Shown here: positions 36,347 to 63,015 of the stretch, piece by piece
How positions within the stretch are numbered: the stretch's first letter is position 1
Layout: the number at the start of each line of letters is the position of its first letter
Origin: a phage
DNA length: 64,000 nt
Direction: 5' to 3' (one strand)
Assembly: GCA_014816185.1 (NCBI GenBank)
Contig: GCA_014816185.1_4095.1
Notes under the pieces: generated by a model
Databases searched by the model: none
Told to the model about the DNA's origin: nothing
The model's input: only the letters and a program-made list of their open reading frames with translations
Program-made: the position numbers and the translations under genes

Positions 36347-36351
36347 AAAAA

Positions 36352-40364: not shown

Positions 40365-40378
40365 AAATAATTGAAAAA

Positions 40379-40465
40379 GGGATTGACTCCGGTCAGTCCC
40401 TTTGCTATTATATACGCATAGAAACAAATCAGCCCACAGGGTGCATAAATGTATCTATTATATGC
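40379..40465 (+). promoter_or_regulatory. composite element: UUCG hairpin / TTGACT-17-TATTAT promoter + conserved segment
   Basis: GGGATTGAC-TCCG-GTCAGTCCC; TTGACT 40383-40388, TATTAT 40406-40411. Confidence 0.5.
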
Positions 40466-43630: not shown

Positions 43631-43644
43631 AAAAGATTAAAAAA

Positions 43645-43735
43645 GGGATTGATTTCGGTCAGTCCCTTTGCTATTATATATTCATTGAGAGATAGCTCAC
43701 TGACCCACAGGGTGCATAAATGTATCTATTATATA
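43645..43735 (+). promoter_or_regulatory. composite element: UUCG hairpin/promoter + conserved segment
   Basis: GGGATTGAT-TTCG-GTCAGTCCC; downstream ATTCATTGAGAGATAGCTCACTGACCCACAGGGTGCA. Confidence 0.5.
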
Positions 43736-46379: not shown

Positions 46380-46398
46380 CAAAAAAGAATAAAAAAAA

Positions 46399-46480
46399 GG
46401 GATTGACTCCGGTCAGTCCCTTTGCTATTATATACGCATAGACAAAAACTAGCCCACAGGGTGCATAAGTGTATCCAAAA
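46399..46480 (+). promoter_or_regulatory. composite element: UUCG hairpin/promoter + conserved segment
   Basis: GGGATTGAC-TCCG-GTCAGTCCC; CCCACAGGGTGCATAAGTGTATC downstream. Confidence 0.5.
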
Positions 46481-47748: not shown

Positions 47749-47997
47749 TGCGTAAAGGGATCTAGTACTGATTCAGAAAAAAGTCAAGGCGTTTTTAAAA
47801 TTATGCGTTAAAAAAATGCATAGGTAATCCCTTGACTTTTTTGAAATAAAAGGGATTGGACTATGGCAAAATGCGTAGGGGGCTAAAGGGCGGGTAACCT
47901 TAGCGACTTCGATAAAGGGGTATTACGAATAAAATGTTATTGACTTTTTATATGAATCGTATAAAATATGATCGATAATAATTTTAAGGGAGTCCCT

Positions 47998-48195
47998 ATG
48001 CGTATTTTAACTAAAGAACAGCACCACGAAAGACTTATCAATAACATGGCTATGATAATGTATAAGTCCCATGACCGTGGTATTGCCTATAAGCGTGAAT
48101 TAATTATGGCACTATTCATTGGAACTAACTTTCAGGAAAGGTATGTCAACGATTGGATTTGGTATTTAATTGAAGATATAACGAGTAAACTATGA
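47998..48195 (+). CDS. GTNYQE-family small protein (first member)
   Basis: start MRILTKEQ; motif IGTNFQERYV; C-term ITSKL. Confidence 0.55.
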   Translation: MRILTKEQHHERLINNMAMIMYKSHDRGIAYKRELIMALFIGTNFQERYVNDWIWYLIEDITSKL

Positions 48196-48392
48196 AAATG
48201 CGTATTTTAAATAAAGAAGAATATCAATCACTGTTACGTAAAAACTTCACAAAGATTTATAATACAGACACACACGTAGAACGAATGGAGTTATACCTTT
48301 TGATTACTTTGGGAACTAACTATCAGGAAAGATGGGTGATTCAATATATGGATACATTGAAAAATAAAATATTGTCCACGAGGAAACAATGA
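48192..48392 (+). CDS. GTNYQE-family small protein
   Basis: LGTNYQERWV; ATGA overlap. Confidence 0.55.
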   Translation: MKMRILNKEEYQSLLRKNFTKIYNTDTHVERMELYLLITLGTNYQERWVIQYMDTLKNKILSTRKQ

Positions 48393-48598
48393 AAACTATA
48401 ACACGAACCCAATCATACGGTCTTATCTTGAAATACATGGACTTAATGGTGGATATCAGCAAAGACCTTCCTAAAACTGAAATTGAAGTTGCAAGAGCAG
48501 AGATCCGCATGTTGGCTGTACTGAACACAAACCATCAGGAAGATTATGTTGAAGAATGGATTCGATTTTTAATTCAAGATATAAAGAGTAAATTATGA
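48389..48598 (+). CDS. GTNYQE-family small protein
   Basis: LNTNHQEDYV..IKSKL. Confidence 0.55.
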   Translation: MKTITRTQSYGLILKYMDLMVDISKDLPKTEIEVARAEIRMLAVLNTNHQEDYVEEWIRFLIQDIKSKL

Positions 48599-48810
48599 TT
48601 ATTATAGAAAACTCATATCAATATACTGAACGCATCGCTGCCAGACAACTTGAAATCCTCATAATATACGAAGAGACTTCTGATTTAAACTTAGCCGAGG
48701 TATTGGAAAATGATATACTATTGGGTGCATTCTTAGGAACAGACTATCAGAAGTATTATGAGGAAAAGTATTTGTCATCTCTTGAGAAATATATCAGGAG
48801 CAAATTATGA
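48595..48810 (+). CDS. GTNYQE-family small protein
   Basis: LGTDYQKYY..IRSKL. Confidence 0.55.
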   Translation: MIIIENSYQYTERIAARQLEILIIYEETSDLNLAEVLENDILLGAFLGTDYQKYYEEKYLSSLEKYIRSKL

Positions 48811-49019
48811 TTTTTTTAACACCAGAAGAATATAAGAAACGTTTCAATTCCGCACAGGGTGAAATCTTACTTATATACCTTTCAAATGCAGACCTTAACT
48901 TATCAAGGGTATTAGAAAAAGATTTACTTATGGGTGCATTCCTTGATACAGACTTTCAGGTGTATTATGTAGGGGAATACTTAATTGCACTTCAAAATTA
49001 TATCAGGAGTAAACTATGA
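48807..49019 (+). CDS. GTNYQE-family small protein
   Basis: close paralog of 48595. Confidence 0.55.
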   Translation: MIFLTPEEYKKRFNSAQGEILLIYLSNADLNLSRVLEKDLLMGAFLDTDFQVYYVGEYLIALQNYIRSKL

Positions 49020-49234
49020 AACATTTAAGTAACTCCGAGAAGAATAAAATTATCGTTGCTGCAATAAACAAATATTTTACACTTCCTCACACAGAAGGTT
49101 TATGTGTAAGGGAACACAGGATAAACACCACCGATATACGCATGATGGCTGTACTGGGGACGAACTTTCAGGAAGAGTATGTTGTTGCACACATAGTTGC
49201 CCTCACTGATTTAATAAGGGACAAATGCAAATGA
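49016..49234 (+). CDS. GTNYQE-family small protein
   Basis: LGTNFQEEYV. Confidence 0.55.
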   Translation: MKHLSNSEKNKIIVAAINKYFTLPHTEGLCVREHRINTTDIRMMAVLGTNFQEEYVVAHIVALTDLIRDKCK

Positions 49235-49539
49235 AACACTTAACTGATGATGAATTTGAAACTATAATTCGTAAACTAACCCCCATCACAAGGATAGTCT
49301 ACGGTGACCCCAGCCTTACATGGAACCAAATGCGAGCTAAAGTTAATGAGCTATGGTTGCTGTACTTTATGGGGACTCAATATCAAGATAAGTTTTGCAC
49401 AGAATATATCGAACAATTAACGAATGTTATACAGGATAAACTAGATGATTATTTGCTCACAAAACATGAAGATTTTATCAGGAGTGGAGTATCAGACTGC
49501 CCTCTTCTCTCTTCTAAACACCCTCCGCACGAACAATAA
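49225..49539 (+). CDS. GTNYQE-family protein with C-terminal read-through extension
   Basis: MGTQYQDKF; junction reads aaactaGATGA where the family pattern would be aaactATGA, so the stop is lost and the ORF runs 31 codons into the next gene. Confidence 0.45.
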   Translation: MQMKHLTDDEFETIIRKLTPITRIVYGDPSLTWNQMRAKVNELWLLYFMGTQYQDKFCTEYIEQLTNVIQDKLDDYLLTKHEDFIRSGVSDCPLLSSKHPPHEQ

Positions 49540-49717
49540 ACTTTATAATTCCCGTGAAGCTGATATCGTCAACGCTGATGTATATCTTAATAAATTCATA
49601 GGGACTAACTATCAAGAACTGTTCACTCTACGATATATCGCTGCATTGAGAAACGAAATATCAGATAAAACCCGTCAAGCCAGAAGAGAATGGAATAAAC
49701 AATGCGACACAGACTAA
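49445..49717 (+). CDS. GTNYQE-family small protein
   Basis: IGTNYQELF. Confidence 0.5.
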   Translation: MIICSQNMKILSGVEYQTALFSLLNTLRTNNKLYNSREADIVNADVYLNKFIGTNYQELFTLRYIAALRNEISDKTRQARREWNKQCDTD

Positions 49718-49953
49718 ATCACAAAATGTATTGTAAACTATTACAGACACTGGCACAGAAACACTATGACACTGTATCTGAAATATTACCCTATGATATC
49801 ATGCGTTTAATTCATAGTGAGGCAGAGATGCTTGTACTGATGACAGGCACTGATAAAAAAGCAATTGCCAAATCAATAGATATGTTCATCGAAGCACAAT
49901 GTCAACACATTAGAACCGAGATATGGAGACGAGAGAATGATAACACTAAATGA
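49702..49953 (+). CDS. GTNYQE-family-like small protein (divergent)
   Basis: MTGTDKKAI in place of the motif. Confidence 0.45.
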   Translation: MRHRLNHKMYCKLLQTLAQKHYDTVSEILPYDIMRLIHSEAEMLVLMTGTDKKAIAKSIDMFIEAQCQHIRTEIWRRENDNTK

Positions 49954-50152
49954 GTTTCAGTATCATTGGAGGTTACAAACTATCAAATCAAAAGTGTATA
50001 GTATTGTGTTAAACAAATCTATTGCACAAGAGGACAAATGTGTTATAATAGCTGAAATGAAGTTGGGTGCTTTCGTAGGGACAAACTATCAAAACATCTA
50101 CACTGACGTATTGTTAAGTGCCTTACGTAACAAGGTGGTATCCAAAATATGA
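49937..50152 (+). CDS. GTNYQE-family small protein
   Basis: VGTNYQNIY. Confidence 0.55.
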   Translation: MITLNEFQYHWRLQTIKSKVYSIVLNKSIAQEDKCVIIAEMKLGAFVGTNYQNIYTDVLLSALRNKVVSKI

Positions 50153-50367
50153 GAAATTTACAAGGCTTTGAATACATCAGACTCCTGAAAACATGTGGAA
50201 GCAGAAGGAGAATGATATCAAGCGATAAGAGCATCCAAGCTAACCTTAAGCACGCACTAGTAACTGAACTCTATGTAGGTGCACTCTTAGGCACAAACTA
50301 TCAACAAATGTATGTGGATCTATGGATTGACGCTCTACAGAAAGAGGTTAAAAGTAAATGCAAATGA
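50149..50367 (+). CDS. GTNYQE-family small protein
   Basis: LGTNYQQMYV. Confidence 0.55.
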   Translation: MRNLQGFEYIRLLKTCGSRRRMISSDKSIQANLKHALVTELYVGALLGTNYQQMYVDLWIDALQKEVKSKCK

Positions 50368-50576
50368 TTAATTTAAGTAAAGACGAATTTTATGTTATAC
50401 TGGCGAAAACTTATCCAGCACGTAAGGCCGTTTATGATAGTCACATTATTGAACCCTCAAAGAAGTTGATTTTAGTAAATGAGATAAAGATGCTTTCAGT
50501 CTTAGGAACAAACTATCAAGAGAATGCTGTACTGATGTTAATTGATGCCCTCCAGCGAGAGGTTAAACGTAAATGA
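50358..50576 (+). CDS. GTNYQE-family small protein
   Basis: LGTNYQENAV. Confidence 0.55.
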   Translation: MQMINLSKDEFYVILAKTYPARKAVYDSHIIEPSKKLILVNEIKMLSVLGTNYQENAVLMLIDALQREVKRK

Positions 50577-50803
50577 AAATGATTAATTTAACTTACCATG
50601 AATATCAAAAACGTTTAAATGCATCCAGAGATATAAGGATTCAAATATTCAATAACAAAAGATTGAAGCCTGATATCAGGAAAATCAAAATCATAGAAGC
50701 CGTGTTGTGCAACTTCCTAGGGACTAACTATCAGGAAGGTAAGGTAGAAAACTATCTTATAGAACTCATGAATAGTATTGAAAATAAATGTAAGGGTAAT
50801 TAA
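50573..50803 (+). CDS. GTNYQE-family small protein
   Basis: LGTNYQEGKV; 3' end duplicated at 51038-51076. Confidence 0.55.
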   Translation: MKMINLTYHEYQKRLNASRDIRIQIFNNKRLKPDIRKIKIIEAVLCNFLGTNYQEGKVENYLIELMNSIENKCKGN

Positions 50804-50804
50804 C

Positions 50805-51044
50805 ATGAAAATGATTAAATTATCTCAAGCAAAATATAAAGAACGCCTGGTAAAAATTGCACCTGGACTTAATGAAATCCATCACGGAGAAGTCATTAAA
50901 CACGGAAATAAGATGATTATGAAACTTGAGTTAAAGGTGGGTGCATTCATAGGAACAAACTATCAGGAGTATTATGTAGATGAATACATAATCGCACTTA
51001 AGAGATACATTGGAAGAAAACTATATCTACAAACTAAAGAATAG
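50805..51044 (+). CDS. GTNYQE-family small protein
   Basis: start MKMIKLSQ; IGTNYQEYYV. Confidence 0.55.
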   Translation: MKMIKLSQAKYKERLVKIAPGLNEIHHGEVIKHGNKMIMKLELKVGAFIGTNYQEYYVDEYIIALKRYIGRKLYLQTKE

Positions 51045-51073
51045 TATTGAAAATAAATGTAAGGGTAATTAAC

Positions 51074-51394
51074 ATGCAAATGATCAATTTAAGTAAAGAT
51101 GAATATACCGAGCGTATGACAAAAATTACGCACAAACGTAATACAATCTATCACAACCCAGAAATTCAACACAGTAAGAAAATGATTATGATGCGTGAGT
51201 TAAAGATGGGTGTATTCTTAGGAACAAACTATCAAGATACAGAAGTAAATCGCTTAATCGCGGAGTTGCTACTGGAAATCAGAGGTAAGCTGTACTTTCA
51301 TCAAATGACCCAACCACTGAGGTGTACTAAGAAATGTTCAACATCACATTGCAAGAAAGATTCATCCGAATCAACTATGCAATTACCAAATTAG
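51074..51394 (+). CDS. GTNYQE-family protein with C-terminal extension
   Basis: start MQMINLSK; LGTNYQDTEV; extends ~40 codons past family length into next gene. Confidence 0.45.
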   Translation: MQMINLSKDEYTERMTKITHKRNTIYHNPEIQHSKKMIMMRELKMGVFLGTNYQDTEVNRLIAELLLEIRGKLYFHQMTQPLRCTKKCSTSHCKKDSSESTMQLPN

Positions 51395-51549
51395 ATGCTA
51401 CTATAGGATTCCAAAGTCTACCATACAAAACCAGATTGTTATTAGAGTGTGAAGCTAAGTTGGGTGTACTGTTAGGGACGCAACACCAACAACGATATGT
51501 GGAAATCTGGATTGACCTTTTAACCCAAAATATATATGAGAGAATGTAA
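51334..51549 (+). CDS. GTNYQE-family small protein
   Basis: LGTQHQQRYV. Confidence 0.5.
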   Translation: MFNITLQERFIRINYAITKLDATIGFQSLPYKTRLLLECEAKLGVLLGTQHQQRYVEIWIDLLTQNIYERM

Positions 51550-51780
51550 ATGCAAAATGAAATGATATACTTAACGAATGAAGAATTTCAAGAGAAGATG
51601 TTAAAAACCAAAAACATTACTCTTAAGTTCGTTCCAAATCAATCAATATCTGAAGTATCTGCAAATGTATTGTTTCAGAAGCTACCATACGTTCTTGGAA
51701 CTGATAAACAAGAATTTATGGTTCAAAATATGATTGAACATCTTATAATGAGTATTAAGGAAAAAGTAAATGCAAAATGA
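51550..51780 (+). CDS. GTNYQE-family small protein
   Basis: LGTDKQEFMV. Confidence 0.55.
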   Translation: MQNEMIYLTNEEFQEKMLKTKNITLKFVPNQSISEVSANVLFQKLPYVLGTDKQEFMVQNMIEHLIMSIKEKVNAK

Positions 51781-52024
51781 AATGATATACTTAACCTATA
51801 ATGAATACGTCGAGAGATTAGTTCGTGCCAAGAGATATACCAATAAACGTCCAATTGACCTAAACCAAACCCCAGCAGAAAGGAGTGCAGAAGTATTATT
51901 CCAATCACTACCATATCTTCTGGGAACTGATAGACAAGAGGAATATGTTGCACGTATGATTAGATATCTTAAAATCACTATTAAGGAAAAAGTAAATGCA
52001 AATGAAATACTTAACAGACGATGA
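51770..52024 (+). CDS. GTNYQE-family small protein
   Basis: LGTDRQEEYV; paralog of 51550. Confidence 0.55.
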   Translation: MQNEMIYLTYNEYVERLVRAKRYTNKRPIDLNQTPAERSAEVLFQSLPYLLGTDRQEEYVARMIRYLKITIKEKVNANEILNRR

Positions 52025-52247
52025 GTTAAAAGAACGACTAATTAAATCAAGAAAACATACAAATCAACTTCCAAACGACACAAACAAGTCTCCAGCGGAA
52101 AGGAGTGCAGAAGTTTTATACATTCAACTCATGTACTTTCTTGGCACTGACAGACAAGAGTATTACATTGAAAGTATGCTTCGATATCTTAAATTCTCTA
52201 TAAAGGAAAAGATACATGATCAAGTATTTAAAAATCCTAACTGCTAA
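51996..52247 (+). CDS. GTNYQE-family small protein
   Basis: LGTDRQEYYI. Confidence 0.55.
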   Translation: MQMKYLTDDELKERLIKSRKHTNQLPNDTNKSPAERSAEVLYIQLMYFLGTDRQEYYIESMLRYLKFSIKEKIHDQVFKNPNC

Positions 52248-52458
52248 TGAATATCATAAGATTGTAATGAAGACTAATAGTGCTTACGCTAAAAAATCAA
52301 ACCCCAAGTACATACTGGAACACACATTTGAAGAACGTCAATTAGCTTTAGTTGAAGCAAAACTTCTTGCACTATTAGGAACAAACTATCAGGAAGAATA
52401 CAATAGAAAACTAATATACCTTTTAACTAAACATATAAGAAAAAGAAAAAATGCATGA
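52216..52458 (+). CDS. GTNYQE-family small protein
   Basis: LGTNYQEEY. Confidence 0.55.
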   Translation: MIKYLKILTANEYHKIVMKTNSAYAKKSNPKYILEHTFEERQLALVEAKLLALLGTNYQEEYNRKLIYLLTKHIRKRKNA

Positions 52459-52685
52459 AACACTTGACAGATGATGAACATGGGCTTATAGTAATGGATG
52501 TAATCAACATCGAATACAAAAAGTTGATACGCTATCGTTGTTATGAAGATAAGCAACTCGTTCTAGCAGAACAGAAGTTGTTTCGACTCTTAAACACAAA
52601 CTACCAAGCACAATACGAAGAATCGTATATGTACCTTTTGGCGAGGAAAGCAAAAAGAGATTATGAAAATTTTAAGCAAAGGTGA
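52455..52685 (+). CDS. GTNYQE-family small protein
   Basis: LNTNYQAQY. Confidence 0.55.
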   Translation: MKHLTDDEHGLIVMDVINIEYKKLIRYRCYEDKQLVLAEQKLFRLLNTNYQAQYEESYMYLLARKAKRDYENFKQR

Positions 52686-52884
52686 TTCAGTAATATTACT
52701 TATAGAGAGTTCAAGTAAATTCTTAAACATAACACTGTCTGATATAGATGAAGATGATAAAGAAGTACTGAGAGCAGATTTAAGAGTACTGTTACATATC
52801 GGAACAAACCTACAAGAAGAATATGTAGAGTGCTACATTAATGAACTTAAAGAATCAGTACTGAGAAAATGCAAATGCAAATGA
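52663..52884 (+). CDS. GTNYQE-family small protein
   Basis: IGTNLQEEYV. Confidence 0.55.
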   Translation: MKILSKGDSVILLIESSSKFLNITLSDIDEDDKEVLRADLRVLLHIGTNLQEEYVECYINELKESVLRKCKCK

Positions 52885-53108
52885 AAATCATTTCACCCAC
52901 AGAATACAACCAACTATTAAGTAGTTTAATTCTAAAGCTGTTTATAACAAAAAGCATGAAATTACCAGATGATGAAATAAGTATTCTAGTAAGTGAAATC
53001 TATGTTCAAGCTACACTAGGGACTAACTATCAAGAATGCAATATTAATGATTACATCAATGAACTAAAAAGGTTTATCCAATGCAAATGCGAATCATTAC
53101 CGAAGTAG
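52869..53108 (+). CDS. GTNYQE-family small protein
   Basis: LGTNYQECN. Confidence 0.55.
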   Translation: MQMQMKIISPTEYNQLLSSLILKLFITKSMKLPDDEISILVSEIYVQATLGTNYQECNINDYINELKRFIQCKCESLPK

Positions 53109-53323
53109 AATACCTAACAATCATAAATGGACTGTTTTCGAAGTTATTTGCCATTAACACATCAAAACTTCCAGATTCTGATAAAATTATTAAGTTAAAT
53201 GAAATCTACGTTCAAGCTACTCTAGGAACAAACTATCAAGAAGCCAATGTGTATAATTACATTAATACACTCAAAAGGGTAATACAATTAAAATGCACAG
53301 ACAGCACACACACAAACCCCTAG
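53081..53323 (+). CDS. GTNYQE-family small protein
   Basis: LGTNYQEANV; close paralog of 52869. Confidence 0.55.
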   Translation: MQMRIITEVEYLTIINGLFSKLFAINTSKLPDSDKIIKLNEIYVQATLGTNYQEANVYNYINTLKRVIQLKCTDSTHTNP

Positions 53324-53523
53324 GAACAGCAGAATACATTGAACTAATGGCTGCAAACTTCTCATCCTTTAAGAAACTGATGCAAGAATCAAAGAATGAT
53401 TTAGAATATCACATCAAAAGTTCAGATTTAAGATTGCTACTCACTCTAGGAACAGATTCCCAAGAGCGATTTGTCAATGAGCATATTAGAGCACTTTTAA
53501 ATGGCATCAGGAATAAACTATGA
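53293..53523 (+). CDS. GTNYQE-family small protein
   Basis: LGTDSQERFV. Confidence 0.5.
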   Translation: MHRQHTHKPLGTAEYIELMAANFSSFKKLMQESKNDLEYHIKSSDLRLLLTLGTDSQERFVNEHIRALLNGIRNKL

Positions 53524-53735
53524 AGGAAATATCAAATCAAGAGTACTTGGCACTATTCAGGAAGAATAATCACAAATATATGGCACTTGATTCAAGAACT
53601 GATATAAGTGAACTTGAAAAAAATCTTTTGCGTTCAGAGATGATAGTACTGACACTCTTAGGAACACAGCATCAAGAGAGAACTGTTAATTCACACATAG
53701 GGATTCTTATGCAGATAGTTCAGGAAAAGATATGA
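53520..53735 (+). CDS. GTNYQE-family small protein
   Basis: LGTQHQERTV. Confidence 0.55.
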   Translation: MKEISNQEYLALFRKNNHKYMALDSRTDISELEKNLLRSEMIVLTLLGTQHQERTVNSHIGILMQIVQEKI

Positions 53736-53953
53736 GAATCATAACACAACAAGATATTCTTAAGTTCACAAGGGTTCATGCATCTGAATTTGATGCTATA
53801 TTATCAAAAAGTTACAACAACCCTTATACACAAGATGTACATTACAGTGAATTATGGATGTATATACTTTTAGGTACAAATAAGCAAGAGCAAGCCGTAC
53901 AGAAGTATTTGACAGCTTTACGTGATGCTACTGCTAATGGAGTATGTGTTTAA
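53732..53953 (+). CDS. GTNYQE-family small protein
   Basis: LGTNKQEQAV. Confidence 0.55.
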   Translation: MRIITQQDILKFTRVHASEFDAILSKSYNNPYTQDVHYSELWMYILLGTNKQEQAVQKYLTALRDATANGVCV

Positions 53954-53954
53954 T

Positions 53955-54197
53955 ATGAAAGTACTGACAGAACTAGAAATGTATCATAGATTTAATAAGT
54001 ACTATCATTTACTTAAGCCTATACAGAGGATTAAATGTCCATTTGAAGAGAAACAGGTTTTAATCTATGAGCACAAGTTCTTTGTATCATTAGGTACAGA
54101 TCAACAAGAGTACTATTTGACGTTGTACTTGATTACATTAATAGATTTAATTCACTATAAAACCAAACAAGCTAATAAAGAGAAATATGAAAACTAA
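53955..54197 (+). CDS. GTNYQE-family small protein (last in array)
   Basis: start MKVLTELE; LGTDQQEYYL. Confidence 0.5.
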   Translation: MKVLTELEMYHRFNKYYHLLKPIQRIKCPFEEKQVLIYEHKFFVSLGTDQQEYYLTLYLITLIDLIHYKTKQANKEKYEN

Positions 54198-54531
54198 TAT
54201 ACAACTCAAGGTATATAAATCATTTGAACATACATATATCAAAAGTAGTCTATGTAGAGATGTAATGGATTACAAGGGTAAGCCATTCACAATTACCTAT
54301 GATTCTTATGTTAGTGATTTATATATATCATTTGTTAATTACGAAAATAAAATATACAAGCACGTTGATATTAAAGATTTAAGTACTTTATCACCAGAGG
54401 AATACTTTCAGGAATCATTAGTATGGGATTTAGAGTTTCCTATGCCATTAGTACATAAGATGATAGTACTAATGAAAGAATCTAAACAGGAGCCTAATGG
54501 TGATTATGAAGAACACACAGTTGAGTACTGA
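54187..54531 (+). CDS. FQxSL-family protein
   Basis: LSPEEYFQESLVWDLEFP. Confidence 0.55.
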   Translation: MKTNIQLKVYKSFEHTYIKSSLCRDVMDYKGKPFTITYDSYVSDLYISFVNYENKIYKHVDIKDLSTLSPEEYFQESLVWDLEFPMPLVHKMIVLMKESKQEPNGDYEEHTVEY

Positions 54532-54892
54532 TAATATTAAGAGTTATACAAGCTCAAGTACTGTGACAATCGAAGTGAATTCTATTAATGCTGGTAATGC
54601 AGTAGATAAGTTCTTTATTGCTCAAGGGTACAGGAAAGATATTCATCAATATTGTTCAGTATATGGGGAGTACAATAGTACTGAAGATATAATTTATTGG
54701 TCAACACATCAAGATTATCTAACTAAAATTGGAGTTCCAGATGTTAGTACTTTATCTGAAGAAGAATACTTTCAGTACAGCTTAGTACATGATGTACCTA
54801 TACCTTTAGGGTTAATCAAGGGTATACAGGAAGAGGTTCATAAGCTTAAATCCATGAGTAAAGGTACTTTCATTAGAACAGTGCAATACTAG
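54497..54892 (+). CDS. FQxSL-family protein
   Basis: LSEEEYFQYSLVHDVP; start may be 54506. Confidence 0.55.
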   Translation: MVIMKNTQLSTDNIKSYTSSSTVTIEVNSINAGNAVDKFFIAQGYRKDIHQYCSVYGEYNSTEDIIYWSTHQDYLTKIGVPDVSTLSEEEYFQYSLVHDVPIPLGLIKGIQEEVHKLKSMSKGTFIRTVQY

Positions 54893-54951
54893 CTTGACAG
54901 TACTTTTCATTACTGATATAGTACACTAACGTTAATCATAGGGTAAAAATT

Positions 54952-55197
54952 ATGTTAAATTTTTTAAATTTCCTTATCGTTTTGTGTATTGTTCTTGGGA
55001 TTGCACCATTTGTATTGTATTTCATGGATTCAGATGAAATGCAGAAGATGAATTGCACAAGGACAGGACAGAGTAGAGTAGAGACGATTCTTATGCCTGT
55101 TACGGTTATTGTTAACAACATGCCCATTACGAACATGGTCCCTACCCTAACGACAACGTACCAGTACTCTTGTGCTGACGGTGAGAGGTGGAGATGA
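54952..55197 (+). CDS. small membrane protein
   Basis: 81 aa; hydrophobic N-terminus. Confidence 0.45.
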   Translation: MLNFLNFLIVLCIVLGIAPFVLYFMDSDEMQKMNCTRTGQSRVETILMPVTVIVNNMPITNMVPTLTTTYQYSCADGERWR

Positions 55198-55505
55198 AAT
55201 TTAATATAGCAAAAACATCGAGTATATGTATTTTTGGTTATGCTGATGAGTTAGGTGATATTGACATTCTTTTGTACAAAAAGGATGGTGTTATGCATTT
55301 CAAGTACCAGGATGAAGAGGCAGACAATTATCCTTTACCTAATTTAGTACAAATGCAGGAAGATGAATTATTCCAGTACAGCTTAGTATACGACATTGAT
55401 ATTTGCACGATGCCAGTACTAATTAGTATTCAAAAAGTGATGCTCGATATGTATGATAAGCTAATACAAGGTACATCAGGGAGAATCATTGAAATTGACA
55501 TATAA
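55188..55505 (+). CDS. FQxSL-family protein
   Basis: QEDELFQYSLVYDID. Confidence 0.55.
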   Translation: MEMKFNIAKTSSICIFGYADELGDIDILLYKKDGVMHFKYQDEEADNYPLPNLVQMQEDELFQYSLVYDIDICTMPVLISIQKVMLDMYDKLIQGTSGRIIEIDI

Positions 55506-55701
55506 GAATATACCTAATGCATATGAAATGAAGTACAGGGAGTTTATTAAAAATGTACACACCGATCCTTTTAATATCAAAATATCAGATTTTGATGTAT
55601 TATTTTATCTAGGGACAATAGCACAGGATCAATGCGTTGATAAGCTCATATGGTCCTTGAAAATGGAGATACAATGCAGACCCAAATATATAAAAAGGTA
55701 G
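55489..55701 (+). CDS. GTNYQE-like small protein embedded in FQxSL array
   Basis: FYLGTIAQDQCV. Confidence 0.45.
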   Translation: MKLTYKNIPNAYEMKYREFIKNVHTDPFNIKISDFDVLFYLGTIAQDQCVDKLIWSLKMEIQCRPKYIKR

Positions 55702-55937
55702 ATTCTTTATTGTACGCTTCAAAGTACAGGGATTTTTGTTTACGAGGGGGAGAGGAAGATTTCTCTCTGAGATTATCTGAATTTAATATGTTATTTTATC
55801 TTGGTACAAAAGATCAAGAAGATACAGTACAGAAATTTATCAAGCACCTTGAACAAAAAATTCATATGCAAATTTTTATGCTTAAGGTACATAATGAGAT
55901 AAACAAATATGAACCCAACAATAGTACAGGATCTTAA
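55674..55937 (+). CDS. GTNYQE-like small protein embedded in FQxSL array
   Basis: start MQTQIYKK; FYLGTKDQEDTV. Confidence 0.45.
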   Translation: MQTQIYKKVDSLLYASKYRDFCLRGGEEDFSLRLSEFNMLFYLGTKDQEDTVQKFIKHLEQKIHMQIFMLKVHNEINKYEPNNSTGS

Positions 55938-56295
55938 ACAAGTAATATTCCTTTTGAATACCAGAAGTGAATTGTATACAGAGTTAAAAGAGATTAATGC
56001 ATTTTATCAGAATTTTGTAATCCAAGAGTTCAGTGATTTAATTACAGATGCATTATTTGAATTCTCGGAGAAATACAAAGGAACAGAGTTCAGTGTTAAG
56101 AATGTTATTCGTCCAAGTACAAGGAAAATTATATTATCACATTTTACATTTGACAATAAAGATTTATTCAGTCATAATCCAAGTACAGCTTTATATTTTA
56201 TTCCTGATTCAGATAAAAATCATCCTATTCATTACGGATGGATTTTGTCATATATAGTACAAGGAAAGGAGTATCCTATTAAATGGAAAGATTAG
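55909..56295 (+). CDS. hypothetical protein
   Basis: 128-aa ORF. Confidence 0.5.
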   Translation: MNPTIVQDLKQVIFLLNTRSELYTELKEINAFYQNFVIQEFSDLITDALFEFSEKYKGTEFSVKNVIRPSTRKIILSHFTFDNKDLFSHNPSTALYFIPDSDKNHPIHYGWILSYIVQGKEYPIKWKD

Positions 56296-56443
56296 GGCGA
56301 TTAGATTATTACACAATTAATACAAATTATTTGTTGCGTAATATAAAATCCGATTACAAAATATGGATAAAGAACAGAGATAGCATGTGTTATGAATTTT
56401 ATTTAGATTATGCTATCAAACGATTTTTAAGAGAAGAACATTA

Positions 56444-56647
56444 ATGCAAAAGATTAATACGATAACATTAAATGCATTACAGGATTCATTATTAGATAGT
56501 ATTAAGATGTATTACAATATACATTTGAAGGGTGGTATTGATGATTACGATTATTATTTGAGTTTAATTACATTTGAGCACCTTTCAGTACAGGACAGGA
56601 TTTTACATCCTACAAATCCTAGGTATCCATCGATAGGTAAATTATGA
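56444..56647 (+). CDS. hypothetical small protein
   Basis: 67-aa ORF. Confidence 0.4.
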   Translation: MQKINTITLNALQDSLLDSIKMYYNIHLKGGIDDYDYYLSLITFEHLSVQDRILHPTNPRYPSIGKL

Positions 56648-57198
56648 ATGAGATAGAGTTATTAGCACACAAGATAAGTACAATAATGCTTATCCTCAAT
56701 AACAACCATCCTATATCGCAGATAGATGGAATCCTGAGTCAGAGGACAGGTGGTAGTTTATATTTGTCCATAAACGCAGATATCGCAAGGAAATACATTG
56801 ATATTGACATTGATGTTGAAATCGAATATGATACAACGGGGATTGTTGGTGTAGGTGCATTAATCAGTTCAAATCCAGTATCAGCATCCCCATTGACCAA
56901 AGATGTTAGTACAGGATTCGAAGGGTATTTGTGGTACAATACCAATGATGATTATTTTATATATCAGCATTCCAATACAAATTATGATGAAGACAAATTT
57001 CAGTTCATAGACCCTTATGATGAAGCTGAAGTATTTCAAAAATCATTAATCACAAAACCGCATGAGATGATGTATCTAATTTTATTCAGTACAATGCATT
57101 TGAATCCATTAATTAAAGGTTTAAAATTTTATATTCAATTAAATTTAGTCCATGTAGTTTATGATTTATTAATGCAAGGATATAGTTATGAAGTATAA
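56644..57198 (+). CDS. FQxSL-family protein
   Basis: DEAEVFQKSLITKP. Confidence 0.5.
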   Translation: MNEIELLAHKISTIMLILNNNHPISQIDGILSQRTGGSLYLSINADIARKYIDIDIDVEIEYDTTGIVGVGALISSNPVSASPLTKDVSTGFEGYLWYNTNDDYFIYQHSNTNYDEDKFQFIDPYDEAEVFQKSLITKPHEMMYLILFSTMHLNPLIKGLKFYIQLNLVHVVYDLLMQGYSYEV

Positions 57199-57499
57199 AA
57201 TGATGTATACCCCAGATATGATTTATGTTGAATTAGAAGATGATGACGATGGGTGGAATTTGATTTATTCAAGAAGTTCAGGTTGGTACATGGCACATTT
57301 AAATGATTCGATAGTTACAGATTATTTTGTAGATTTCAATACATTATCCGATGAAGAATTGTTCCAACAGCAATTAGTGATTGACACGGGTGGTTATGAT
57401 GTCTTATTATTAAAAAAGATACAGAAAGCTGTTATTGATTTTAAGCCCATGATATGGCAAAGGAAATATTATGACCTCGAAGTACCGTACCAGCAATGA
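57188..57499 (+). CDS. FQxSL-family protein
   Basis: SDEELFQQQLVIDTG. Confidence 0.5.
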   Translation: MKYKMMYTPDMIYVELEDDDDGWNLIYSRSSGWYMAHLNDSIVTDYFVDFNTLSDEELFQQQLVIDTGGYDVLLLKKIQKAVIDFKPMIWQRKYYDLEVPYQQ

Positions 57500-58037
57500 T
57501 ATTCAGTACACCTACGCTAATGCAATCCTTATGGGACAAAAGTTAGCTTGTATTGTTGCAGCCTTATATAATGCACAGAAATATCACAAGCGTCATTTCC
57601 ACAAATGTATTGGTATTATTCCATCGAAGTACAATACATATATTGCGTGCACGAGTCATTTTGATAAACGATTCAATACACCAGATACACCAAATGCCCG
57701 TAGTGTTATTGGTCTTTTGGATTTCGCACCTGGTGCTGTTATTGGAAAGAATGATTTAGAGTACGCATGGTATAATAAAAATGCCCCGTTAGTAATGGTA
57801 ACATATGATAACGAAACGAACAACGCAATAGAGTACAATACATATAAATCAGAGGAAGAATTTTTCCAAGGTTCATTGCTTGTACCAGTGCGTTTATTGT
57901 TTTATAATGTCCTTATTAGTACAGTACACAATAGTCCATTACACAAGAATCACAAAATTAATTTCAATTTTTGTGCTTATGCGATTGATGGTGTGTATGA
58001 GTGTTTAATGGAGGTATTGAGTTATGAAGCTGAATAA
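57471..58037 (+). CDS. FQxSL-family protein
   Basis: SEEEFFQGSLLVP. Confidence 0.5.
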   Translation: MTSKYRTSNDIQYTYANAILMGQKLACIVAALYNAQKYHKRHFHKCIGIIPSKYNTYIACTSHFDKRFNTPDTPNARSVIGLLDFAPGAVIGKNDLEYAWYNKNAPLVMVTYDNETNNAIEYNTYKSEEEFFQGSLLVPVRLLFYNVLISTVHNSPLHKNHKINFNFCAYAIDGVYECLMEVLSYEAE

Positions 58038-58365
58038 TACATTTGATATTAATAAGTTAAGAGAATGGTTTTATAGTATTGAAATTGAAGCCATCCCGTA
58101 TCATAGATATGAACAATATAATTTAACCAGTATTGATATCAGTGAGTTGTACGCGTATTATCAAAGTGCATTAGAGATGCATAAGTTATTTTTGAGTACA
58201 GATTTTGTTCTAAATTACAATTTTGAGGAATTTAATAATTATAATTTAGTACAGAAATATGTAGTAGCAAAGTACATGTACCTTCAAGGAATTACAAGTA
58301 TAGTGGAATTCAATACAGTCCTTGCTTTAGTTGAGGTAATTTTATGCAGTACATGTATGATTTAG
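58024..58365 (+). CDS. hypothetical protein
   Basis: 113-aa ORF. Confidence 0.45.
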   Translation: MKLNNTFDINKLREWFYSIEIEAIPYHRYEQYNLTSIDISELYAYYQSALEMHKLFLSTDFVLNYNFEEFNNYNLVQKYVVAKYMYLQGITSIVEFNTVLALVEVILCSTCMI

Positions 58366-58850
58366 AGTTCAGCTTAGATGCTGCATTTAAATATGTTCAC
58401 AAGATAGAAACAATATACAGTACATTATGTGCAATAAAATCAGTAACAGAAGAGCTTGATGTTGGTGAAAAATATCAGGTATGGAATAATACATTTTTAA
58501 ATAAAGAACGTTGCTCTACGGGGTTTAATATTTTAACATTTAATCCCAGCAATTGTTACCCAGAGAAGCATGAACGTTATCCGAATGACGACATGTGGTT
58601 TGAGTACAAAGAAGATTGTGATATGTCGTTCATTGAAGTTCCTGATGATTTTAATGCACAAGATTTAACAGACGAGTGGTGGTTCCAGCAGAATTTAGTC
58701 CACGATGATATTGATTTATTTTTTTATGTAGTATTTAAAATGCTTTATCACAACAATATAGTACAAGATAGTGTATTTTTTTCATGTCTATATATTGATG
58801 ATTTGTACAATGAAATTCAAATCAACATGCCCAGAACGCCTGTATCGTAA
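58344..58850 (+). CDS. FQxSL-family protein
   Basis: TDEWWFQQNLVHDDID. Confidence 0.5.
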   Translation: MQYMYDLEFSLDAAFKYVHKIETIYSTLCAIKSVTEELDVGEKYQVWNNTFLNKERCSTGFNILTFNPSNCYPEKHERYPNDDMWFEYKEDCDMSFIEVPDDFNAQDLTDEWWFQQNLVHDDIDLFFYVVFKMLYHNNIVQDSVFFSCLYIDDLYNEIQINMPRTPVS

Positions 58851-58902
58851 GATATGGGCTTTTTTCGTTTTGGTATTGACATAGAAGACCAAAGCTGTTA
58901 TC

Positions 58903-59445
58903 ATGTGTATTCATTTTAAAGGAGAACATATAGTGAGTTTCATAATCCCAAGTACATACGAAGATGCATCAAGTGCAGTTCATAAGATTCATTATATTTT
59001 TAATTTAATTATTAAATCTGCAAAAATTAAAATGTATGCACCTCTTGTGACAAATAATCGAAATGAAGAAATTTTTATTAGCACAGACAAAATTATTTTT
59101 CCATATTTCAATGAAGATAGATTGTGGTTCATACATTTAGCTGCATTACAAAAATATAAGATGTCAATTCGTAATAATTTGGTTATACCGTTATATCATC
59201 CCGATATTGGAGAGGATGAATATTTTCAGTACAGCACAGTACACCGCCATGAAGATATCTTTGCTGCTATGCTTATTGCTAAATTGAACACCGTTGATTT
59301 GGAGCAGTACAAATACAATAATAAATCATGTAAGATCATAATCCCTGCATTCATAGCTCTTTATGATTATGTGGTGCATAACAAAAAAGATGATACATAT
59401 GCTTTCAATGAAGAGTATTTGAATTTTTTTAAGGAGAACATATGA
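58903..59445 (+). CDS. FQxSL-family protein
   Basis: GEDEYFQYSTVHRHED; possible GTG start at 58933 after AAGGAG. Confidence 0.5.
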   Translation: MCIHFKGEHIVSFIIPSTYEDASSAVHKIHYIFNLIIKSAKIKMYAPLVTNNRNEEIFISTDKIIFPYFNEDRLWFIHLAALQKYKMSIRNNLVIPLYHPDIGEDEYFQYSTVHRHEDIFAAMLIAKLNTVDLEQYKYNNKSCKIIIPAFIALYDYVVHNKKDDTYAFNEEYLNFFKENI

Positions 59446-59969
59446 GCAGTGAAGTGCAGAAATCAATGACATTCAATGAAATTGGTGCATTTAAAGATAA
59501 GATTATTGATTGCATTGAATACATGATTTGTAGTAATATCGAAAGTATTGAGATATTTAACAAGACAAATCGCTCTTACCATATGATGTACATTGCAAAC
59601 AATAATGGTATCATTCCATTTATTTCGGATAGTACAATATGGTACGCATGTGATACGAAAAAATACACAGCAGGTTCGTATAGCTTAGGGTCACATACGG
59701 AATTGATTATTCCTGAGCATTGTATGCAAGAAGAAGAATATTTTCAAATGCAATGTATACATTCACCATTAGTGTTGTTTAGTTTATATATTATACCTTA
59801 TATCACCAAATGTGTTCATGAGAATAAAGCTCCGTGGAATCATGAATTTGTATCGTTGAAGTTATTGTATAATGTATTAGTAGAATATTATGATTACAGG
59901 CACAATGGTACAATCAGTGATGTATGGGATTTTGAATCGCTAAGGGTGAAAACATACACAGGTGAATGA
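59442..59969 (+). CDS. FQxSL-family protein
   Basis: QEEEYFQMQCIHSP. Confidence 0.5.
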   Translation: MSSEVQKSMTFNEIGAFKDKIIDCIEYMICSNIESIEIFNKTNRSYHMMYIANNNGIIPFISDSTIWYACDTKKYTAGSYSLGSHTELIIPEHCMQEEEYFQMQCIHSPLVLFSLYIIPYITKCVHENKAPWNHEFVSLKLLYNVLVEYYDYRHNGTISDVWDFESLRVKTYTGE

Positions 59970-59970
59970 T

Positions 59971-60585
59971 ATGACCAGAATTAAAATGTATGATTTGATG
60001 CAGTACAGTAAAATTGCCATTCCGGTGCTTAATAAAGTGCTGGATGCATTCATTGCCAAATACCCTGAGAATTCAGTGTTATGTATTCCATTTAGTGTTC
60101 CAGATAAAGATGATATATTCCAAGTGAATGTCAGTACACGTGGTATTACATTACAGCAGAAATACATGGATACGGAATATTATGGAATAAAGTTGGATTC
60201 AGTACAGGGTTCAAAATCAGCCTATGATTTTTTTGTTCCTAATAATATAGAGTCATGGGAAACAAACATTTCAAAGAAAGATGAAAATGATGTTCCTATT
60301 AGTGGTGTGTTCAACAATAAAGTTTTTTATTATTACGAAACCGACAAATTCCCTGAAGAGTTATATTACAATTCAGAAATGAATGAAGATGTAGATGCAT
60401 TCATGTTTCAATTATCGTTAGTACATGATATCATTGATGTTCAAGAGTTAAGAGCAGAAATCAATTTAGCTAAAGAGTTATCGGACATGCTGCCACCGTT
60501 TAGTATGCTTTTTTGTGAAGGTGGTTATTTTTCAAAAGAAGTGTTTGAACATTTCGTAGATGTTGTAAAAGGGTTGGATATATAG
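59971..60585 (+). CDS. FQxSL-family protein
   Basis: start ATG 59971 (MTRIK); VDAFMFQLSLVHDI. Confidence 0.5.
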   Translation: MTRIKMYDLMQYSKIAIPVLNKVLDAFIAKYPENSVLCIPFSVPDKDDIFQVNVSTRGITLQQKYMDTEYYGIKLDSVQGSKSAYDFFVPNNIESWETNISKKDENDVPISGVFNNKVFYYYETDKFPEELYYNSEMNEDVDAFMFQLSLVHDIIDVQELRAEINLAKELSDMLPPFSMLFCEGGYFSKEVFEHFVDVVKGLDI

Positions 60586-60586
60586 T

Positions 60587-60781
60587 ATGCTTACAGTTGA
60601 TGTTAAACAAAAATACCGTAAGTTTGATTGGTTCACCGACAGTTTCCAGCTTGAATTATTACATTTGAATATCTGTGAAACATTATGTGCAGAAACACAA
60701 GATGAATTTGATGATAGAGTGATGAACATAGTAATGCTTTCTTGTTTTAAACATTTTGGTTATTTTTTCGGACAGAATTGA
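60587..60781 (+). CDS. hypothetical small protein
   Basis: 64-aa ORF. Confidence 0.4.
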   Translation: MLTVDVKQKYRKFDWFTDSFQLELLHLNICETLCAETQDEFDDRVMNIVMLSCFKHFGYFFGQN

Positions 60782-60789
60782 GGTAAAAA

Positions 60790-61305
60790 ATGCATCAACA
60801 CAAGCATCATTCATATGATTTTGCAATTAACATTATGAAGTTCATTCGAGCGTTGGAGGATGGTAAGCTTAGTCATAAGTACAAGAAAGAGGGTAACAAT
60901 TGGTTCAGAAATGATTCCGAGTTCAGTTGTCATAAAATCGTGTATAGTAATCAGTACAGTGCCAATTACCTACAAGATGTAGTGATGTGTTTTGAATATG
61001 TGTTGCAGTTCAGGGGTTCAATCCAAGATGAGTTGATGGAGAACATGTACATCCGATACCTTCCAATGCTCAAAGATGAAAATGTATTATTAAATTCAAT
61101 ATACCAACGAGTTCGTGAAATTGAGTGCAGGGATATATTAGATACAGAAGAATCGTATTTCCAGCAATCCCTGATTTATGCACCTGATTTATTACAGGTA
61201 CATAATTTGTTTAATACATTACGTCAAAACATCGGTACAGACATATTTTTGTCATTATCGGATTATGATACATTTGTCAAAGATTTAGAGGAAATAGGCT
61301 TATGA
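60790..61305 (+). CDS. FQxSL-family protein
   Basis: TEESYFQQSLIYAPD. Confidence 0.5.
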   Translation: MHQHKHHSYDFAINIMKFIRALEDGKLSHKYKKEGNNWFRNDSEFSCHKIVYSNQYSANYLQDVVMCFEYVLQFRGSIQDELMENMYIRYLPMLKDENVLLNSIYQRVREIECRDILDTEESYFQQSLIYAPDLLQVHNLFNTLRQNIGTDIFLSLSDYDTFVKDLEEIGL

Positions 61306-61646
61306 GTCGATTTTCGGTTTATATAGTAAACGTCAGTAAAGATGGTAGTTTAATTGAATTTGATGTAGTTGATAACAATGATAATTCATATGGTATTAAG
61401 GTACAGGACAATGATGTGCAGTTCAGTACAAGGACAAATTTTGAGAATCCAGTCCAAGTTCCGAATTTCATAGAAGATGAAGCTGCACGATTCCAATACG
61501 AAACGGCATATGACAATGTACATATGCATATTATTATGCAAACGAATTTAGTTCAATTAGTTCCTTTGTTCAGACAAAATATATATGTACATGAAGTCTC
61601 GATTAATGGCATTCAAAGTTCCGTTTTGTTTGGTACAAATATGTAA
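61302..61646 (+). CDS. FQxSL-family-like protein
   Basis: DEAARFQYETAYDN. Confidence 0.45.
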   Translation: MSRFSVYIVNVSKDGSLIEFDVVDNNDNSYGIKVQDNDVQFSTRTNFENPVQVPNFIEDEAARFQYETAYDNVHMHIIMQTNLVQLVPLFRQNIYVHEVSINGIQSSVLFGTNM

Positions 61647-61656
61647 GGAAAGTACA

Positions 61657-62208
61657 ATGAGTTCAATGAGTTTATTAGATACATTAGAAAAAGACAGAAG
61701 TGCCATTAAGCGTTTAAAAGAGCAAGTACAAAAGATTGTATACAACGTTGATAAGTTTGAAGTCCCAGGAAGATTTGGTGATATTTCCCATACGGAGATC
61801 AAATCCCTTAAGTCAGATTTGTTGATTAAAAATAAAAATGGGTTGATTTTAGTTTTGAGTTCAGATATGATGGGGGCAACACATAGTTATAATGCCGTAT
61901 CGGTGCGTTCCGAGTGTGAAGGTATATATCTATCACAGGGTTTCAATAGCGAGACACAGGTTTGTTTTTGTGATGCAGTACATGACCCTATGAAGTTCAC
62001 GAGAAGTGAAGCCCAAGCGTTATTAGAGCTATCAGACGAGAGTTTGTTTCAGTACAGTACAATGTATGACAATGATAAGCTTCGTTGTATGTACGCTGTA
62101 AAGCATTATACACAGGAGTTCTCTGGATTTGCATACCTTTTAGTTAGAACCAATACCAGATATATTGATATGTTAGAAGATTACATCGATAAAGTTGTTA
62201 ATGTATGA
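61657..62208 (+). CDS. FQxSL-family protein
   Basis: start MSSMSLLD after AGGA; SDESLFQYSTMYDND. Confidence 0.5.
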   Translation: MSSMSLLDTLEKDRSAIKRLKEQVQKIVYNVDKFEVPGRFGDISHTEIKSLKSDLLIKNKNGLILVLSSDMMGATHSYNAVSVRSECEGIYLSQGFNSETQVCFCDAVHDPMKFTRSEAQALLELSDESLFQYSTMYDNDKLRCMYAVKHYTQEFSGFAYLLVRTNTRYIDMLEDYIDKVVNV

Positions 62209-62230
62209 TGTATTATTATGTGATGGGATA

Positions 62231-62817: not shown

Positions 62818-63015
62818 AGACGTTTCATTTTGACAGGCCGCAGGGGGGGGTCAAAAAAATTTCCGCTGAAAAACATGCTAAGGTATATGTTTAATATAAA
62901 GTTTTATATTGTGTTTTTCAGAGTACAGTTCATGTTTCCTTAAACAAAAAATACCCCGCCGCCGAACGTGCTCCTTATATTGGAGTTTACCTTATTAATT
63001 ATAGTAGAGATTAAG

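Follow-up and report, generated by a model that had tools for sequence, protein, structure and literature searches.

Organization of the array

The locus described here is an array of small genes at positions 47998–54197 of a 64,000-nt stretch of contig GCA_014816185.1_4095.1 (GenBank assembly GCA_014816185.1); this whole stretch is referred to as the window, and all coordinates refer to it unless another phage is named. The 9-kb stretch around the array is 98% identical to Escherichia phage vB_EcoM_phAPEC6 (phAPEC6). The phages slurp01, SHEFM2K, UB, UE-S1, ph0011, and 121Q cover 84–100% of it at 88–97% identity, and PBECO4 covers 76% at 95% identity. These identities assign the window to an Asteriusvirus jumbo coliphage of the 121Q/PBECO4/phAPEC6 type (Rak2-like jumbo myophages, approximately 350 kb).

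A listing of open reading frames (ORFs), a six-frame motif scan, and an alignment of 30 sequences resolved the array into 28 consecutive small ORFs on the plus strand (64–104 amino acids, aa). In the motif scan, 27 of the 28 carry [LIVM]-[GND]-T-[NDQ]-x-[QK]-x, and the array of about 28 motif-sharing genes that a sequence-only reading had described between 47998 and 54197 was thus confirmed, with one doubtful gene. A family hidden Markov model (HMM) searched against the six-frame translation of the window retrieved 30 ORFs, all on the plus strand and within 47965–55937. Two of these lie downstream of the array (55489–55701 and 55674–55937; leave-one-out E values of 5e-9 and 9e-10), and no other ORF in the 64 kb matched at E < 0.01. 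The concentration of matches in the array is far beyond chance.

The doubtful ORF (49702–49953) resembles the members in size and position. It gave neither a leave-one-out HMM match nor a match to PHROG 4148, the protein cluster to which the family belongs (see below), and its comparison with the family in hhalign was colinear with E = 0.0018 and a probability of 15%. Its orthologs in five relatives are 82–97% identical. We list it as a doubtful or possibly degenerate member. In the following list, the basis of assignment is given in brackets, and SD denotes a Shine–Dalgarno sequence and pI the isoelectric point.

47998–54197 (+): contiguous array of 28 small genes (27 clear, one doubtful), largest intergenic gap 35 nt
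47998–48195 (+): member 1, 65 aa, SD AAGGGAG (HMM E = 1.7e-19)
48198–48392 (+): member 2, 64 aa; an alternative start at 48192 gives an ATGA overlap (HMM 8.4e-20; PHROG 4148 1e-19)
48389–48598 (+): member 3, 69 aa, LNTNHQE (HMM 1.7e-22)
48595–48810 (+): member 4, 71 aa, acidic, pI 4.4 (HMM 8.8e-19)
48807–49019 (+): member 5, 70 aa, 53% identical to member 4 (HMM)
49016–49234 (+): member 6, 72 aa, without ortholog in 121Q (HMM)
49231–49539 (+): member 7, 102 aa, C-terminal tail of ~30 aa, 74-nt overlap with the next gene (HMM)
49466–49717 (+): member 8, 83 aa (HMM)
49702–49953 (+): doubtful or degenerate member, 83 aa, MTGTDKKA (weak hhalign match)
49937–50152 (+): member 10, 71 aa (HMM)
50149–50367 (+): member 11, 72 aa (HMM; PHROG 4148 1.2e-21)
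50364–50576 (+): member 12, 70 aa, the protein used for the model (AlphaFold2, AF2; predicted local distance difference test, pLDDT, 97.6; predicted template modelling score, pTM, 0.82)
50579–50803 (+): member 13, 74 aa (HMM)
50811–51044 (+): member 14, 77 aa, sharing a 226-nt DNA repeat (76%) with member 15 (HMM)
51080–51394 (+): member 15, 104 aa, C-terminal tail, 61-nt overlap with the next gene (HMM)
51334–51549 (+): member 16, 71 aa, LGTQHQQ (HMM; leave-one-out E = 2e-12)
51562–51780 (+): member 17, 72 aa, LGTDKQE, IKEKV end (HMM)
51782–52024 (+): member 18, 80 aa, 54–55% identical to members 17 and 19 (HMM)
52002–52247 (+): member 19, 81 aa (HMM)
52216–52458 (+): member 20, 80 aa, pI 9.9 (HMM)
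52455–52685 (+): member 21, 76 aa, LNTNYQA (HMM)
52663–52884 (+): member 22, 73 aa (HMM)
52881–53108 (+): member 23, 75 aa (HMM)
53087–53323 (+): member 24, 78 aa, 53% identical to member 23 (HMM)
53293–53523 (+): member 25, 76 aa, the sole member present at ≥78% identity in all seven phages compared (ortholog comparison)
53520–53735 (+): member 26, 71 aa (HMM)
53732–53953 (+): member 27, 73 aa (HMM; leave-one-out E = 2.6e-12)
53955–54197 (+): member 28, 80 aa (HMM; PHROG 4148 4e-22)
55489–55701 (+): outlying member 29, 70 aa, LGTIAQD, among genes of a second family (leave-one-out E = 5e-9; PHROG 4148 1.7e-6)
55674–55937 (+): outlying member 30, 87 aa, LGTKDQE (leave-one-out E = 8.7e-10)

Conservation and selection

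T49 is invariant in the alignment of 30 sequences, in which G48, Q52, and L63 are each at least 90% conserved. At the DNA level, all 30 copies of the 21-nt motif differ. The conserved residues G48, T49, Q52, and L63 are encoded by two to five synonymous codons each (four for G48, three for T49, and five for L63, the latter from both leucine codon families). Direct DNA repeats in the array, with periods of ~209–232 nt, are only 60–78% identical. The pooled ratio of nonsynonymous to synonymous substitution rates (dN/dS) of orthologs was 0.33 and 0.35 in the comparisons with 121Q and vB_Ec-M-J, respectively. Because the motif DNA is unique in every copy, synonymous codons are used for the same residues, and dN/dS is well below 1, the motif is no nucleotide-repeat artefact, and the array encodes a genuine protein family.

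When the alignment columns were grouped by class, dN/dS was 0.17–0.19 for core and motif positions, 0.39 for the surface, and highest in the tails (0.63–0.66). Values for single columns (omega) were estimated by a crude count over 29 ortholog groups from eight phages. They were very low for G48 (0), E40 (0.03), L63 (0.04), and T49 (0.06). No column in this data set exceeded 1, the maximum being 0.90. Every paralog is now maintained by purifying selection. The array evolves faster than the adjacent genes of the terminal repeat described below (dN 0.077 versus 0.022, dN/dS 0.35 versus 0.16), and the region downstream of it resembles the array in this respect (dN/dS 0.39).

Predicted fold and role of the motif

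The AF2 model of member 12 consists of four helices (residues 6–15, 17–25, 31–45, and 52–69). The models of paralogs from 121Q, UB, slurp01, and other phages in BFVD agree with it (five full-length matches, TMq 0.73–0.93). According to these predictions, the family members are soluble proteins of ~8 kDa sharing a four-helix domain that is modelled with high confidence. A hydrophobic, heptad-like set of positions is conserved (13, 36, 41, 43, 47, 56, 59/60, 63, and 67), as are L-(T/S)-x-x-E at the start of helix 1 and the turn L47-G48-T49-(N/D)50-x-Q52-E53, which places the motif between helices 3 and 4. The remaining positions vary widely, with high column entropy outside the core, pI values of 4.4–9.9, and net charges of −6 to +9; 20 of the 30 members are basic (pI ≥7.8). 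The proteins are cysteine-poor and contain no metal-binding motif.

In the proposed role of (L)GT(N/D)xQE, the glycine would form a helix C-cap, the threonine would bridge to residue 2 (a bridge between residues 2 and 49 is present in the AF2 model), the asparagine or aspartate would serve as N-cap, and the glutamate would complete a capping box. From the sequences and the DSSP assignment, we infer that the motif is fold-determining rather than catalytic. No solved structure in the PDB (e.g., of helix-turn-helix regulators, AsiA-like anti-sigma factors, or MIT domains) was found to be specifically similar in structure or sequence.

Gene junctions and translation signals

The 27 junctions were counted with family-consensus starts. 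The tight, uninterrupted packing proposed earlier holds, with gaps of at most 35 nt. The accompanying statement that almost all junctions are ATGA or TAATG overlaps does not, since exact ATGA overlaps occur at only 12 of the 27; the others are overlaps of 16–74 nt or gaps of 1–35 nt. The C-terminal IRSKL and IKEKV endings are real. The SD of the next gene lies within the final codons of its upstream neighbour (e.g., ATC AGG AGT AAA CTA TGA, read as I-R-S-K-L-stop), so part of the conserved end of the C-terminal helix is dual-coded. A duplex with the anti-SD of −4 kcal/mol or stronger is possible at 20 of the 28 starts, compared with 15–19% of the remaining positions or ATGs of the array. The ORF coordinates show overlapping junctions also at the downstream genes outside the family, and translational coupling is therefore not specific to the array.

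The tails of ~30 aa of members 7 and 15 (49231–49539 and 51080–51394) overlap the respective following genes by 74 and 61 nt and look like the products of read-through after loss of a stop codon. A search for a conserved nucleotide junction able to drive unequal crossing-over found only the ATG and codon-level signals to be conserved.

Duplication history and copy number

The mean pairwise identity of the 28 array members is 25%, whereas adjacent genes share 32% (permutation p < 5e-5), and the nearest relative is the next-door gene for 15 of the 28 members (7% expected). Both results support the origin by tandem duplication suggested from the sequence. They do not extend to the claim that it was recent: the closest paralog pairs are 47–55% identical at the protein level, the best DNA repeats only 76–78% over 132–226 nt, and single paralogs can be paired with orthologs in other phage species. 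A recent gene amplification of the "accordion" type was rejected, as near-identical DNA copies are absent.

According to the HMM, 30 copies are present in the window, phAPEC6, ph0011, and vB_Ec-M-J, 28 in SP27 and UE-S1, and 25 in 121Q; the divergent clade contains 20–21 (Turkey5) and 19 (JNE01). Counterparts with at least 70% identity exist for 19–25 of the 30 members of the window in five relatives and for one in the Turkey5/JNE01 clade, member 25 (53293–53523) being the only one retained everywhere. Identity to the relatives is mosaic: member 14, for example, is 100% identical in SP27, 96% identical in UE-S1, and ~50% identical in three other phages, which suggests cassette replacement by recombination. 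Reciprocal best matches to Turkey5 are roughly colinear at 30–78% identity, and part of the expansion is therefore older than that split. The array is a lineage-specific expansion by old tandem duplication with a restricted taxonomic range (see below).

Position at the genome end and transcription context

The record of vB_Ec-M-J lists a direct terminal repeat (DTR) at 1–21525 and places the start of the first array gene at 21624. DTRs of ~21 kb were determined with PhageTerm for Sharanji; that of fEgEco12 was also confirmed by restriction digests (PMC13070987). The equivalent region of the window is ~26.0–47.9 kb, and the sign of the GC skew flips at ~26 kb. Since the DTR ends ~100 bp before the first array gene, the array is the first locus of the unique region, just inside the genome end. 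Two features lie upstream of its first gene:

47777–47842 (+): hairpin with 13-bp arms AAAAAAGUCAAGG and CCUUGACUUUUUU and a trailing U-run, downstream of the final gene in the terminal-repeat region
47940–47967 (+): sigma-70-like promoter TTGACT-16-TAAAAT from the promoter scan, ~30 nt upstream of the SD of the first gene

The RNA of 47750–47860 folds with −27.1 kcal/mol (z = −3.4; none of 200 shuffled sequences was equally stable), and the hairpin is a plausible terminator that would isolate the transcription unit of the array. The putative promoter follows closely on the position that corresponds to the DTR end of vB_Ec-M-J. Its −35 box is identical in six phages, and the −10-like box is also kept (phAPEC6, 121Q, vB_Ec-M-J, and the divergent Turkey5 and JNE01). 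Inside the array, the scan of 44–58 kb detected no perfect promoter and no convincing terminator on the plus strand.

Between the hairpin and the promoter (~47850–47925) lies a block, GGGATTGGACTATG...ATGCGT(A/G)GGGGG...GGGTAACCTTAGCGACTTCGA, that is kept even in Turkey5 and JNE01. It straddles the site that corresponds to the DTR end annotated in vB_Ec-M-J and may serve as a recognition sequence for the terminus or for packaging. Scanning the window for tRNAs and Rfam families gave no matches.

The DTR-equivalent region (26000–47900, plus strand) contains ~50 small genes with an intergenic gap of 60–100 nt in front of each. In 26–45 kb, 104 promoter-like sites were found (64.5 ± 7.4 expected), and perfect TTGACA-16/17-TATAAT promoters on the plus strand number 11 in this section, with a twelfth at 46096. 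To judge from its sequence, the region 26000–47900 has the architecture of an immediate-early host-takeover module. Four copies of a 28-nt hairpin, AAAGGGATTGACTCCGGTCAGTCCCTTT, are present (36349–36376, 40376–40403, 43642–43669, and 46396–46423). The 5′ arm contains a TTGACT box, and GCTATTATAT follows the hairpin, which could act as terminator and promoter in one between early genes. RNA sequencing of PA5oct, a related phage, assigns the DTR genes to the early class (PMC7318152). The authors of the CBB genome suspected a separate genome block to be early and considered that the terminal repeat downstream could continue the early region (PMC5259590). A literature search found no Asteriusvirus transcriptome.

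Evidence on the virion comes from the published proteome of phAPEC6, which is 98% identical in the array region. None of the array products (gp467c–gp489c) is among its 62 proteins, in which a 4.7-kDa protein was detected. A role of the array proteins as structural components of the virion is not supported by this proteome.

Family range and earlier descriptions

The family corresponds to PHROG 4148 ("unknown function"), whose profile was matched over its full length by nine of ten members tested (E 1.7e-6 to 4e-22) and also by the relatives in K64-1 and phage UB. The PHROG entry gives no function, structure, or description, and it misses the doubtful ORF 49702–49953. Scans of all 30 members against Pfam, NCBIfam, and PADLOC returned scattered sub-threshold matches, each family to a single member, and the family profile had no match among all PDB sequences. 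The impression that the motif matches no known family was thus correct, PHROG 4148 being the only hit. The DUF3885 label that UniRef attaches to P0008, the Ecwhy_1 ortholog, appears spurious, as a Pfam scan up to E = 10 gave no DUF3885 match.

When 1.84 billion cluster representatives were searched with the profile, 94 proteins were retrieved. All named relatives belong to Asteriusvirus (phages of E. coli and Salmonella, including ~350-kb contigs in "E. coli" assemblies) or to Klebsiella Alcyoneusvirus (RaK2, K64-1, KP13-7, RCIP0023, and phiKp_21). A broader profile that included the members of K64-1 and Turkey5 detected no new lineages and no annotated relatives. K64-1 has 13 members (HMM) in six small groups scattered over 18 kb, starting just past the kinase gene by which the DTR-proximal region is recognized. 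Two of them (20564–20929, 121 aa, and 23909–24256, 115 aa, in K64-1 coordinates) have a common C-terminal extension of ~50 aa (…Y.KF.F……E….A…K.NNY) without a Pfam or PHROG match; the domain can therefore combine with another module.

Two supposed fusions were dropped. No match supported a fusion of the domain to the downstream "EEYFQxSLV" family in the 269-aa UB protein P0074 or in the 115–121-aa K64-1 proteins. P0095 (176 aa, CMSTMSU) is not a natural tandem-domain fusion, being a frameshifted chimera of three genes from an "UNVERIFIED" record, and it was left out of the modelling. Fragmented or fused ORFs at this locus in the public records of UE-S1, UB (only 23 annotated coding sequences over the region), and CMSTMSU are probably sequencing frameshifts and should stay out of evolutionary counts.

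Hua et al. (2017; PMC5646251) mention in one sentence an array of more than 30 similar genes in 121Q and cite it in support of tandem duplication as a mode of genome growth. This is most likely the same locus, since 121Q holds 23 + 2 members at the syntenic site. The identity cannot be proven, because phages of the 121Q type also hold an array of RCC1-like paralogs. The sentence gives no coordinates, family definition, structure, or function, and its wording "very similar" does not fit a mean paralog identity of 25%. The Asteriusvirus genome literature examined contains no description of the family. Thus, the family is new and has an orphan fold, whereas the phenomenon, tandem multigene families in large viruses, is already known.

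Neighbouring paralog families

Directly downstream of the array (54187–63922, plus strand) and interleaved with the two outlying members lies a second paralogous family of at least 15 ORFs (103–207 aa) with the motif (D/E)-E-x-(Y/F)-F-Q-x-S-L-V-x-D. Its proteins match several PHROGs, all of "unknown function", and no Pfam family. It evolves fast (dN/dS 0.39), and many of its ORFs have no ortholog in vB_Ec-M-J. On the minus strand, 7528–20476 contains 11 tandem paralogs of ~245–433 aa with a period of ~1.2 kb and RCC1-like beta-propeller repeats (PF25390 and PF13540). By size (~41 kDa) and genome position, this array appears to correspond to the "DNA condensation proteins" of the phAPEC6 virion (gp003–010, gp549, and gp551), and it may be the "array of closely related genes" of the phAPEC6 paper.

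Possible function of the array

The explanation we favour is that the array encodes a set of small, diversified binding proteins, made early and kept out of the virion, that serve host takeover or counter-defence. The host sigma-70 RNA polymerase would transcribe the block early in infection from the promoter at 47940–47967 as one long polycistronic mRNA; early expression is suggested because the block directly follows the promoter-rich terminal repeat, in which each gene has a consensus sigma-70 promoter and whose genes are early in PA5oct. The products would stay in the infected cell, outside the virion, and each paralog would bind a different host or competitor macromolecule via its own surface. 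Together, the paralogs would form a takeover or counter-defence panel with a logic like that of viral multigene families. The fast and patchy evolution is typical of accessory genes.

We put this explanation at slightly less than an even chance, because no positive selection was detected and the function is one that we infer. Several points weigh against it. No alignment column has an omega above 1, and an ongoing arms race is thus not demonstrated. The promoter matches the consensus at 10 of 12 positions, and promoter-like sites in the 44–58 kb scan, which covers the array, occur in the number expected by chance. The gel-based virion proteome may miss proteins of 8 kDa. Finally, the invariant polar residues T49, Q52, E40, and E8 could form a shared functional site instead of serving the fold. 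A more specific version, in which ~30 inhibitors or adaptors on one miniature four-helix scaffold each neutralise a different host defence or housekeeping target and paralog cassettes are recombined between phages, thereby tuning host range, is possible but on balance unlikely. PADLOC, which covers defence proteins, gave no meaningful match to the members.

Families of host antagonists built in this way are known from other viruses. The host-antagonist function of the poxvirus Bcl-2-like proteins and of the multigene families (MGF) of African swine fever virus has been demonstrated. Like the array, these families have a conserved helical scaffold, low paralog identity, an origin by duplication, and strain-variable content. 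However, they belong to eukaryotic viruses with unrelated folds and sequences, and an antagonist role of the array proteins is a hypothesis. Clusters of small early genes driven by the host RNA polymerase are located at the terminal redundancy in SPO1 (gp37–60) and in the pre-early region of T5. The architecture of these takeover modules is the same as that of 26–47.9 kb, which the array abuts. In contrast, their genes are unrelated to each other and have their own promoters, whereas here a single family is repeated ~30 times behind a single promoter, with a timing deduced from its position.

Among the other explanations, we rank first, as improbable, that the proteins are nucleic-acid-binding regulators, either a set of specific factors for transcription or translation or proteins that coat DNA. 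The basic character of 20 of the 30 members is compatible with this, small helical domains often bind DNA, and an analogy is offered by the Zn-ribbon expansion of Bacillus phage G, a lineage-specific expansion of ~35 copies suggested to encode specific factors (Iyer et al., 2021; PMC7824862). That expansion likewise concerns a jumbo phage and tens of tandem copies of a small domain with no known function. The domains differ, a Zn-ribbon there and a cysteine-poor four-helix domain here, and the sequences are unrelated and come from another phage lineage and host.

Two further explanations come after this one, and we consider both quite improbable. According to the first, the paralogs are subunits of one hetero-oligomeric assembly, intracellular or in the virion, with ratios fixed by translational coupling. 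The tight packing with 12 ATGA overlaps would suit such an arrangement, and the conserved polar residues of the common scaffold could mediate self-association. A constant set of subunits is difficult to reconcile with copy numbers of 19–30 within Asteriusvirus and 13 scattered copies in K64-1, or with close relatives that lack 5–11 of the paralogs of the window. Moreover, no member was present in the phAPEC6 virion proteome, and the overlapping junctions extend to genes outside the family. The stoichiometric set of proteins proposed in the sequence-only reading is not supported for the same reasons, i.e., the variable copy number, the retention of only 19–25 of the 30 paralogs in relatives and of one in the divergent clade, and a virion proteome without array products.

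According to the second, the array is largely dispensable filler with little present function, i.e., duplicated DNA that accumulated after capsid enlargement as in the ratchet proposed by Hua et al. Those authors cite the 121Q array as genome growth by tandem duplication (PMC5646251), and the patchy gene content and a dN/dS above that of the neighbouring DTR genes would fit near-neutral evolution. Against this, purifying selection acts in every paralog group, with a core dN/dS of 0.18, and G48, T49, E40, and L63 are nearly frozen while synonymous changes accumulate. ORFs and SDs have stayed intact despite divergence to ~25% identity, and the family persists in two phage genera.

The remaining idea, that the motif is a nucleotide repeat without protein meaning or that the ORFs are untranslated, could appeal to the weak direct DNA repeats (periods of ~209–232 nt) but is effectively refuted by their identity of only 60–78%, the 30 unique motif strings with synonymous variation, the dN/dS well below 1, the SD enrichment at the starts, and a fold confidently predicted from paralog covariation.

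Significance

Approximately 83% of the genes in these 350-kb phages are without known function (PMC7247149), and the array family makes up ~5% of the gene count. Should the paralogs prove dispensable, the locus would be a clean case of jumbo genome growth by duplication. If they are individually targeted antagonists of the host or its defences, they would provide ~30 ready-made probes of E. coli takeover and immunity. The compact, confidently predicted scaffold would then tolerate almost any surface and represent a natural library of small binders. The array would also help to explain how a jumbo phage that does not form a nucleus copes with diverse hosts, and in such a repertoire, phages would have their own equivalent of the multigene families by which large eukaryotic viruses evade immunity.

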